Below, piece by piece: positions 30,000-31,039 of a stretch of 64,000 nucleotides of DNA (positions within the stretch are counted from its first letter, which is position 1; each line of letters begins with the position of its first letter). This DNA is from a virus. Lineage: Duplodnaviria > Caudoviricetes. The notes below the pieces were generated by a model. The model was not told where the DNA came from. It worked only from the letters and a program-made list of their open reading frames with translations, and ran no database searches. The DNA is taken from positions 64,001-128,000 of IMG/VR virus record IMGVR_UViG_3300043754_000129. One strand, 5' to 3'. Both the position numbers and the translations under genes were made by a program.

Positions 30000-30129
30000 T
30001 GGTCCCGCAGGGGTGGGCTCGAACCACCGGCCTCTCCCTTGTTACCCACAGCTGCCAAGAAGGCAGCCGCCGGAGTCGAACCGGCACAGCTTTTGGCTGG
30101 GAGCGCTCTACCAACTGAGCTACCACGGA
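30000..30129 (-). ncRNA. Anticodon-less double-elbow tRNA-like RNA #1
   Basis: TCCGTGG-TA-GCTC/GAGC D arm; stem CTCCC/GGGAG encloses an AGC/GCT hairpin, T arm GCCGG-TTCGACT-CCGGC, hairpin GGCTGCC-TTCTT-GGCAGCT and mini D arm GT-GGGTA-AC; then T arm GGTGG-TTCGAGC-CCACC, acceptor with 1-nt bulge, ACCA. Confidence 0.8.
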
Positions 30130-30137
30130 AACTGATC

Positions 30138-30214
30138 TGGCGCGGTGTACGGGACTCGAACCCGTGACCCCCGGCGTGACAGGCCGGTGCGCTAACCAGC
30201 TGCGCTAACACCGC
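30138..30214 (-). tRNA. tRNA-Asp(GUC)
   Basis: Anticodon arm CCGGC-CTGTCAC-GCCGG; CCA encoded. Confidence 0.95.
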
Positions 30215-30219
30215 AAAAC

Positions 30220-30438
30220 TTAGACAGGCACCACTTCGACAGAATCGGCGATGTGACCCGTCATGGAAACGAAACGAGGAATGTCGGCAACGGCTTCTTC
30301 TTCGGTCGGATACTGCAATGCGCGTTTAGCGCCATCCAGACCAAAGACCACACCGGGGACGATTCCCTTTTCTTCCGGTTGGAAGTATTCACGGCAAGCT
30401 GCACCGTTACGAAACATGCGTGCGACCAGTACAAACAT
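30220..30438 (-). CDS. Small hypothetical protein inside the tRNA array
   Basis: 72 aa with a good RBS (AAGGGTGG); fills the only long gap between RNA genes here. Confidence 0.6.
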   Translation of the reverse strand: MFVLVARMFRNGAACREYFQPEEKGIVPGVVFGLDGAKRALQYPTEEEAVADIPRFVSMTGHIADSVEVVPV

Positions 30439-30500
30439 AGTACCACCCTTAAAGTTAATTCAGGGGTAGCGACACTGTCACTATTCCTCAATCAACTTCT

Positions 30501-30629
30501 TGGTTCCGCTGGAGTGGATTTGAACCACCGACCTCCCTCTTGTAATCCAACACCGTCCCCATTGATGGGGGGACGCCCGGATTCGAACCGGGGAACGAGG
30601 GCGCTCTAACCAGGCTGAGCTACCACGGA
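30501..30629 (-). ncRNA. Anticodon-less double-elbow tRNA-like RNA #2
   Basis: Stem CCCTC/GAGGG encloses T arm CCCGG-TTCGAAT-CCGGG, hairpin CGTCCCC-CCATCAAT-GGGGACG and reduced D arm GTG-TTGGAT-TAC. The outer body has full D and T arms, a 1-nt-bulged acceptor and ACCA. Confidence 0.8.
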
Positions 30630-30651
30630 ATCTGACTTACTGCAAAACTGA

Positions 30652-30727
30652 TGGCGTCCCGTGCGGGATTCGAACCCGCGTACCCACCGTGAAAGGGTGG
30701 TGTCCTAGGCCTCTAGACGAACGAGAC
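30652..30727 (-). tRNA. tRNA-Glu(UUC)
   Basis: Anticodon arm CCACC-CTTTCAC-GGTGG; CCA encoded. Confidence 0.95.
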
Positions 30728-30748
30728 AAAACTGCTATTTCTGAAACT

Positions 30749-30886
30749 TGGTTCCCATAGGGCTGGATTTGAACCAGCGACCTCCGCCATGTGGTGGACC
30801 CCATTATCACGCACCCGCCGGGTGCGCAAAGGCCGGGTCCTCGCCTGGCTGGTTGGCGGCGCTCTACCAGACTGAGCTACCTGGGA
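30749..30886 (-). ncRNA. Anticodon-less tRNA-like RNA #3 with about 66-nt structured insert
   Basis: Outer tRNA body (D arm, CCGCC/GGCGG stem, T arm, 2-nt-bulged acceptor, ACCA). The insert has a GGACCC/GGGTCC stem and a GCGCACCC-GGC-GGGTGCGT hairpin, with no second TTCG loop. Confidence 0.75.
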
Positions 30887-30905
30887 ATCAGACTACAACG
30901 AAAAA

Positions 30906-31039
30906 TGGTACCCGAAGGGTTGGATTCGAACCAACGACCGCCCCGATGTGTATACCAACTCCACCACTTCGCCAGACGGCGAAGCCCGGATTCGAACCGG
31001 GGGAACGCGGGGTGCTCTGGACCGCTGAGCTACCTGGGT
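30906..31039 (-). ncRNA. Anticodon-less double-elbow tRNA-like RNA #4
   Basis: Stem CCCCG/CGGGG encloses T arm CCCGG-TTCGAAT-CCGGG, 7-bp hairpin CTTCGCC-GTCT-GGCGAAG, TG linker and D arm GTG-GAGTTGGTATA-CAC. The outer body has a 2-nt-bulged acceptor and ACCA. Confidence 0.85.

Follow-up and report, generated by a model that had tools for sequence, protein, structure and literature searches.

A retained acceptor-helix defect in a family of putatively non-decoding, tRNA-framed RNAs from jumbo phages

The window analysed here is a 64,000-nucleotide (nt) stretch of viral DNA (positions 64,001 to 128,000 of the 323,678-base-pair (bp) IMG/VR jumbo-phage record IMGVR_UViG_3300043754_000129) and contains a transfer RNA (tRNA) operon (29912–31569, minus strand) with seven canonical tRNA genes (Thr, Ile, Asn, Ser, Glu, Asp and Gln) and four longer tRNA-shaped genes, El1–El4. 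This giant soil phage encodes a PhuZ tubulin. El1–El4 belong to a family of 17 homologous elements in eight jumbo phages, the window phage included, that share a defect in the acceptor helix. The defect survives speciation and gene duplication while its own sequence and size drift and the pairs that flank it are repaired. The family is best explained as a set of RNAs that have a tRNA frame, do not decode and are transcribed as part of the tRNA operons in a PhuZ-encoding jumbo-phage clade. The defect is probably a selected feature, and the reading that we favour, at a probability of roughly 40%, is that it acts as a shape-level anti-determinant that would spare processing and block charging or EF-Tu.

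All four elements lie on the minus strand and are detected by ARAGORN in intron mode only. El1 (30000–30129) is 130 nt long with a 60-nt insert between the strands of the anticodon stem, El2 (30501–30629) is 129 nt with a 57-nt insert, El3 (30749–30886) is 138 nt with a 66-nt insert, and El4 (30906–31039) is 134 nt with a 62-nt insert, the anticodon-stem strands thus lying 57–66 nt apart. In El1, El2 and El4 the insert is a module consisting of a T arm, a closed hairpin and a weak D-like loop; the El3 insert has no second T loop. Each element has a normal U8-A9, D arm, 5-bp anticodon stem, 5-nt variable region, T arm and A73-CCA end.

The irregularity is in the acceptor stem, where a 7-nt 5′ strand faces a 3′ strand of 8–9 nt. 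The strands are TCCGTGG (30123–30129) and CCTGCGGG (30004–30011) in El1, followed by ACCA (30000–30003); TCCGTGG (30623–30629) and CCAGCGGA (30505–30512) in El2, with ACCA at 30501–30504; TCCCAGG (30880–30886) and CCTATGGGA (30753–30761) in El3, with ACCA at 30749–30752; and ACCCAGG (31033–31039) and CCTTCGGGT (30910–30918) in El4, with ACCA at 30906–30909. A regular 7/7 register pairs just four or five of the seven positions; all seven pair once the 3′ strand is allowed to bulge by 1 nt (El1, El2) or 2 nt (El3, El4) at a site two or three pairs from the T arm. The unpaired nucleotides are U 30009 in El1 (alternative register 30010/30011), G 30509 in El2 (alternatively the A at 30510), two nucleotides at 30758–30759 in El3 (alternatively 30757–30758) and UC at 30914–30915 in El4. 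El1 is the only one of the four in which the extra base fits equally well at the junction of the T stem and acceptor. Regular 7/7 acceptor pairing is found in all seven canonical tRNAs of the array and in all six of the phage's second array (Ser, His, Cys, Pro, Met and Tyr; G000:C1:238112–238982, locus L445). A first-pass annotation of the window had quoted the acceptor strands of El1–El4, which match the sequence exactly, and was also right that the seven canonical tRNAs have a regular 7-nt strand.

Other ways of drawing the helix were rejected. A 5′-extended 8-bp helix with internal mismatches, as in the ARAGORN drawings of El2 and El3, gives fewer pairs and needs nucleotide −1 to pair, for which there is no conservation; nucleotide −1 is U in eight, G in seven and A in one of the sixteen members tabulated. 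Placing the extra bases at the T/acceptor junction is feasible only for El1, two elements of Burkholderia phage FLC9 (FLC9_a and FLC9_b) and the element of Ralstonia phage RP12, and is impossible in the other eight bulged members. A branch of the type seen in allo-tRNAs or selenocysteine tRNA (tRNA-Sec), with 8/4, 9/3 or 8/5 geometry, was likewise rejected: the 5′ strand is always 7 nt before U8, the T stem is 5 bp, and the extra length is confined to the 3′ strand.

Outside the window phage, four members form a syntenic array in the metagenomic relative L383 (PhuZ 71% identical), three are present in FLC9, and one each is found in Ralstonia phages FLC1-1B, FLC4-3B and RP12, in a second metagenomic relative (L302; PhuZ 65%) and in a more distant soil phage (G015; PhuZ 40%). 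A fifth member from the window phage lies beyond the window, in the second tRNA array (L445:617–694, minus strand). It is insert-free, its mismatches are tandem G·A/C·A, its anticodon loop is abnormal, and it has orthologues in L302, FLC1-1B and FLC4-3B. The counts below refer to this sample of 17 elements of common origin. They share the frame GGTAGCTCAG...GGTAGAGCG with pairs C2-G71 and C3-G70; U8-A9 is present in all and an encoded ACCA or GCCA in 14. Across the family the anticodon-stem strands are 37–82 nt apart, or 6 or 8 nt apart in the three insert-free members (one of those of L383, that of L302 and the fifth of the window phage). These three have a 6- or 8-nt anticodon loop and carry the same acceptor defect; the family is therefore defined by its frame, and the defect tracks non-decoding status rather than the insert.

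A perfect acceptor helix is present in none of the 17 members, the regular register yielding three to six of the seven pairs. In 12 of them the 3′ strand has one or two extra nucleotides, for which a site two or three pairs from the T arm always fits. In the remaining five the two strands are equally long and carry a tandem of non-Watson-Crick pairs at 4-69 and 5-68; four members have G·A with C·A, and the distant soil phage has G·A with A·G. The first-pass annotation had proposed conservation of the bulge in homologues as a check on its idea, and the outcome is favourable in a modified form: because five homologues have tandem mismatches, the conserved feature is a helix defect at 4–6/67–69 and not a bulge as such. 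It had also argued that random decay would not place a bulge in the same region four times. As El1–El4 are paralogues these are not four independent events, and independent support comes instead from the orthologues; with that correction the argument is supported, since the defect is kept in seven other phages, its flanking pairs covary and the other stems are near-perfect.

The defect itself turns over. The unpaired bases vary among members (U, G, UA, UC, UU, AA or C), and so does their number: El3 has a 2-nt bulge and its L383 orthologue a 1-nt bulge, El4 has 2 nt and its orthologue 1 nt, El2 has 1 nt and the third FLC9 element (FLC9_c) 2 nt, and the 1-nt bulge of RP12 corresponds to tandem mismatches in FLC1-1B. 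Insertions or deletions (indels) have occurred at the site at least four times, and none gave a perfect helix.

The flanking pairs are maintained. Pair 6 occurs as G-C, U-A, A-U or C-G, pair 7 as G-C or A-U, and pairs 1, 4 and 5 in several Watson-Crick types each, while C2-G71 (with one G·U exception) and C3-G70 are fixed. Compensatory double changes are seen at pairs 1, 4, 5, 6 and 7 (e.g. G6-C/G7-C in El1 versus C6-G/A7-U in its L383 orthologue, and G7-C in FLC1-1B versus A7-U in FLC4-3B). Under the same flexible model cognate strands form a mean of 6.5 pairs and non-cognate combinations 5.6. This covariation supports a helix on both sides of the defect. Pairs were counted by script because the gaps introduced by MAFFT sat at the discriminator and not at the bulge. 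The other stems of the 16 members tabulated are paired at 64 of 64 positions in the D stem, 80 of 80 in the anticodon stem and 79 of 80 in the T stem, so that every irregularity falls in the acceptor helix. It is the retention of the defect despite turnover, together with compensatory changes next to it, that makes the case for selection.

Comparison with other tRNA frames shows how restricted the defect is. Of 41 canonical tRNAs from these phages, 40 are regular, versus 0 of 17 family members (Fisher p = 9e-14). In a control of 527 canonical frames from unrelated phage loci, located without using the acceptor stem, three fit a model of 7 bp plus a bulge and 23 have five pairs or fewer. A sample of insert-bearing frames from unrelated phages contains 21 with regular acceptor stems, 13 that are poor or doubtful and none that is bulged. 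The defect is therefore specific to the family and not general to insert-bearing tRNA mimics.

Because the identity and number of the unpaired bases drift, and a bulge in one member may be replaced by a tandem mismatch in another, selection would act on the geometry or flexibility of the helix rather than on a base-specific contact, and the lack of sequence conservation in the defect fits an anti-determinant role. In such a role RNase P and the 3′-end enzymes would still find what they measure, an acceptor/T stack of 12 positions with its T loop and RCCA end; RNase P reads the combined acceptor and T length, the T loop and the RCCA end (PMC10731613). Family members usually retain RCCA and have a constant 7-nt 5′ strand. 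The 3′ strand would be distorted where synthetases and EF-Tu require a regular A-form helix, and EF-Tu is known from the structure of the ternary complex and from antideterminant work on tRNA-Sec to grip the acceptor/T helix on the strand of the defect and near its positions. An abundant tRNA look-alike without an anticodon would in this way be kept from charging and from translation, and would stay free for whatever role its elbow or elbows and its insert may have. Phage tRNA operons are increasingly found to hold many non-decoding tRNA-shaped RNAs, none of known function, and here the candidate determinant is small, sharply defined, evolutionarily retained and removable by a change of one or two bases; cultured phages with family members are FLC9, FLC1-1B, FLC4-3B and RP12.

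Several points weigh against the anti-determinant. Both the failure to be charged and the exclusion from EF-Tu are predictions from sequence, and the 21 regular and zero bulged insert-bearing mimics of other phages indicate that such RNAs need no defect. The bulge is confined to the 3′ strand, which a model in which any defect would do does not predict. Two FLC9 members and that of RP12 encode ACA or UCA in place of CCA. The C2-G71/C3-G70/A73-CCA end may instead be invariant because a synthetase, or some other enzyme, recognises it. Finally, the shared frame suggests that the defect probably arose once, and its persistence could partly reflect tolerance.

Another possibility, conceivable though rather doubtful, is that a protein or RNA, of phage or host origin, recognises the kinked or widened helix as a shape-specific docking site. 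The fixed position, the placement of the extra nucleotides on the 3′ strand without exception and the invariance of C2-G71 and C3-G70 beside the defect all agree with docking, as does the tandem G·A/A·G motif of one member, a common recognition element. However, the bulged bases vary in identity and number, and bulge and tandem mismatch swap between orthologues. Binding by Ro60 (Rsr in bacteria), as in Y RNAs, is a special case of docking that the first-pass annotation had put forward, and it is abandoned here. No TROVE (PF05731) gene was found in the window phage, FLC9, RP12 or three Burkholderiaceae genomes with related phage contigs, and the control genomes matched. The motif GNCGAAN0-1G, which binds Rsr in the 5′ strand of bacterial Y RNAs (PMC4201824), is absent from all terminal helices, its two matches being incidental and inside insert hairpins. 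The best match to the Rfam YrlA model (RF02553) scores 34.7 bits against a gathering cut-off of 69 and spans the El4/El3 junction. Such matches start in the T arm of one gene, cross the spacer and finish in the D arm of its neighbour; they are artefacts of tandem genes, the 'dimeric tRNA' false positives of which the YrlA authors warned (Chen et al. 2014, PMC4201824).

It is unlikely that the defect is neutral and goes back to a single ancestral indel, in a tRNA copy already without a decoding role, which all of its descendants inherited and tolerate because their acceptor helix need not be perfect any more. The single frame makes one origin likely, and drift in the size and sequence of the defect is what neutrality would give. 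Yet an unconstrained helix should decay, and pairs 1–3 and 6–7 always form; compensatory changes maintain pairs 1, 4, 5, 6 and 7; at least four indel events have produced no healed helix; and the defect extends to phages whose PhuZ proteins are just 35–40% identical.

We consider it very improbable that the defect is a destabiliser that opens the 3′ end, either for primer-like pairing with a nucleic acid or for regulated surveillance and decay. Duplex calculations give a weak helix (−4 to −10 kcal/mol), with the two junction pairs not predicted in several members; the covariation nonetheless shows that the junction pairs are maintained. No genomic site is complementary to the 3′-terminal 18 nt of any element with three or fewer mismatches. 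The 5′ ends are N-C-C and not G-G, the latter being required for CCACCA tagging by the CCA-adding enzyme. Neither a phage-encoded CCA-adding enzyme nor RtcB, as possible partners, was found in the window phage.

Least credible of all is that the elements are real intron-bearing tRNAs that are spliced and decode with an unusual acceptor stem. ARAGORN in intron mode does call El1–El4 as Val, Val, Trp and Val with 'introns' of 50–57 nt, and unexplained tRNA introns are present in Lak megaphages (PMC6784885). Against this, the 6- or 8-nt loops of the insert-free members are not 7-nt anticodon loops, the called anticodon and intron position disagree between orthologues, and removal of the insert restores no standard anticodon arm with a consistent anticodon across orthologues; the splicing candidate RtcB is missing, as noted above. 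The inserts are, moreover, conserved folded modules (T arm plus hairpin) and far too short for group I introns.

The family appears to be narrowly distributed. Insert-bearing elements with the family 5′ motif are absent from 30 other PhuZ-encoding phage records, and a blastn sweep of 27 records recovered members in RP12 and one further soil phage only. Two generic pattern scans of IMG/VR gave, among the matches listed, mostly unrelated tRNA-frame RNAs, and two narrower ones gave no close relatives. We found no description of this acceptor defect in the literature. In soil phage G015 two more T-arm-bearing, non-tRNA elements lie upstream of the family member (L448:1210–1230 and 1360–1380), and the 3-kb stretch L448 of this phage has zero ARAGORN tRNA calls.

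Three other kinds of tRNA frame were noted elsewhere. Canonical-looking tRNAs in isolates of ~133 kb (L230:461, L246:1571, L294:4692 and L297:13236) have the acceptor GGGGTTG/CTTCTCC, with tandem U·U at 5-68 and 6-67. At L135:4972 (plus strand), L227:5696 (minus strand) and L047:4995 (plus strand), in unrelated IMG/VR phages, a complete tRNA gene (e.g. tRNA-Phe GAA) sits within the anticodon loop of another complete tRNA frame; the outer frames have a regular acceptor stem, and the nesting recalls the Lak phage case (PMC6784885). Anticodon-loop inserts of 50–75 nt with a common ACAGCAAA-like motif occupy otherwise regular tRNA frames from diverse phages (L228:12771, L207:2737, L176:10118 (−), L179:2317 (−), L212:6839 (−) and L173:4579).

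A further tRNA-framed RNA may be present in the window upstream of tRNA-Thr (31590–31716, minus strand), reported by ARAGORN at relaxed settings only. It has a different scaffold, with a type-II-like D arm (CCCGAGTGGTTGAAGGG), an insert of ~59 nt, a good T arm and no encoded CCA, and in its acceptor (TGCTGCG/CGGAGCG) G clashes with G at pair 5-68; it is a possible family member. The corresponding place in FLC9 holds a differently built element (L001 2504–2680). Within the operon, an open reading frame of 72 amino acids (30220–30438, minus strand) is located between El2 and tRNA-Asp, and its DNA is conserved in L302 (at about 14051–14269) and, at 72% identity over 172 nt, in the more distantly related G001. 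The 137-nt spacer between tRNA-Asn and tRNA-Ser (31153–31289, minus strand) gives no tRNA-like call, and at the matching position L383 has its insert-free, bulged element.

Compared with canonical tRNAs (RF00005), family members have the D arm, a T arm with a TTCRA loop and U8, but neither a regular 7-bp acceptor stem nor a 7-nt anticodon loop, and they give partial matches only, of 21–26 bits against a cut-off of 29. The 'enigmatic' tRNA introns of Lak megaphages (Devoto et al. 2019, PMC6784885) are similar in lying in tRNA-array genes and in adding tens of nucleotides to the anticodon region; some of these inserts are themselves tRNA-like, and no acceptor-stem defect is reported for them. 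tRNA-Sec and the allo-tRNAs (8/5, 8/4 and 9/3; Mukai et al. 2017, PMC5389517) also have non-standard acceptor branches and occur in bacteria and phages. Some of them contain one bulged base, and for some a role outside translation is assumed (PMC5389517), but in these RNAs both acceptor strands are lengthened, the T stem is shorter and the bulge falls at 51a. YrlA resembles the family as a tRNA mimic with real T and D arms, and the inner module of El1, El2 and El4 has the permuted order of the YrlA tRNA-like domain, a likeness of the insert and not of the defect. YrlA differs in having no free CCA end, in adjoining a Ro60 gene and in carrying the Rsr site in its 5′ strand, none of which holds for the El family.

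The closest precedent for the defect is T4 species 1 RNA (rnaC), a stable RNA of unknown role (PMC3014915). It is 139 nt long and lies in the T4 tRNA cluster (L442:2909–3047, minus strand). As read from its sequence, a canonical T arm is followed by CGUUUCG, which pairs with the 5′ CGAUUCG in a terminal helix of two pairs, tandem U·U at 5-68 and 4-69, and three pairs at the terminus. In Enterobacter phages MY742 and CW742 (L446 and L447) the U·U pairs are kept while A3-U70 has become G3-C70. Like the El family, rnaC belongs to a phage tRNA operon and combines a T arm with a 7-position terminal helix that is non-Watson-Crick at 4-69 and 5-68; it differs in that neither a D arm nor an anticodon-stem frame can be recognised, CCA is not encoded, and the mismatch is symmetric where most family members have a one-sided bulge. 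Homology at the sequence level is not detectable: blastn with rnaC finds only T-even-type phages and blastn with the window array finds no rnaC. The conserved U·U pairs make rnaC a second, unrelated phage tRNA-cluster RNA with a conserved defect at the same positions. It is speculative, and we think quite unlikely, that a 4–5/68–69 defect is a general, independently evolved mark of non-translational tRNA-framed phage RNAs that is read by a conserved bacterial or phage factor. If this were so, it would imply an undescribed pathway for tRNA look-alikes and would give the first functional handle on T4 rnaC after 50 years; the parallel itself suggests a possible relevance well beyond this phage clade.

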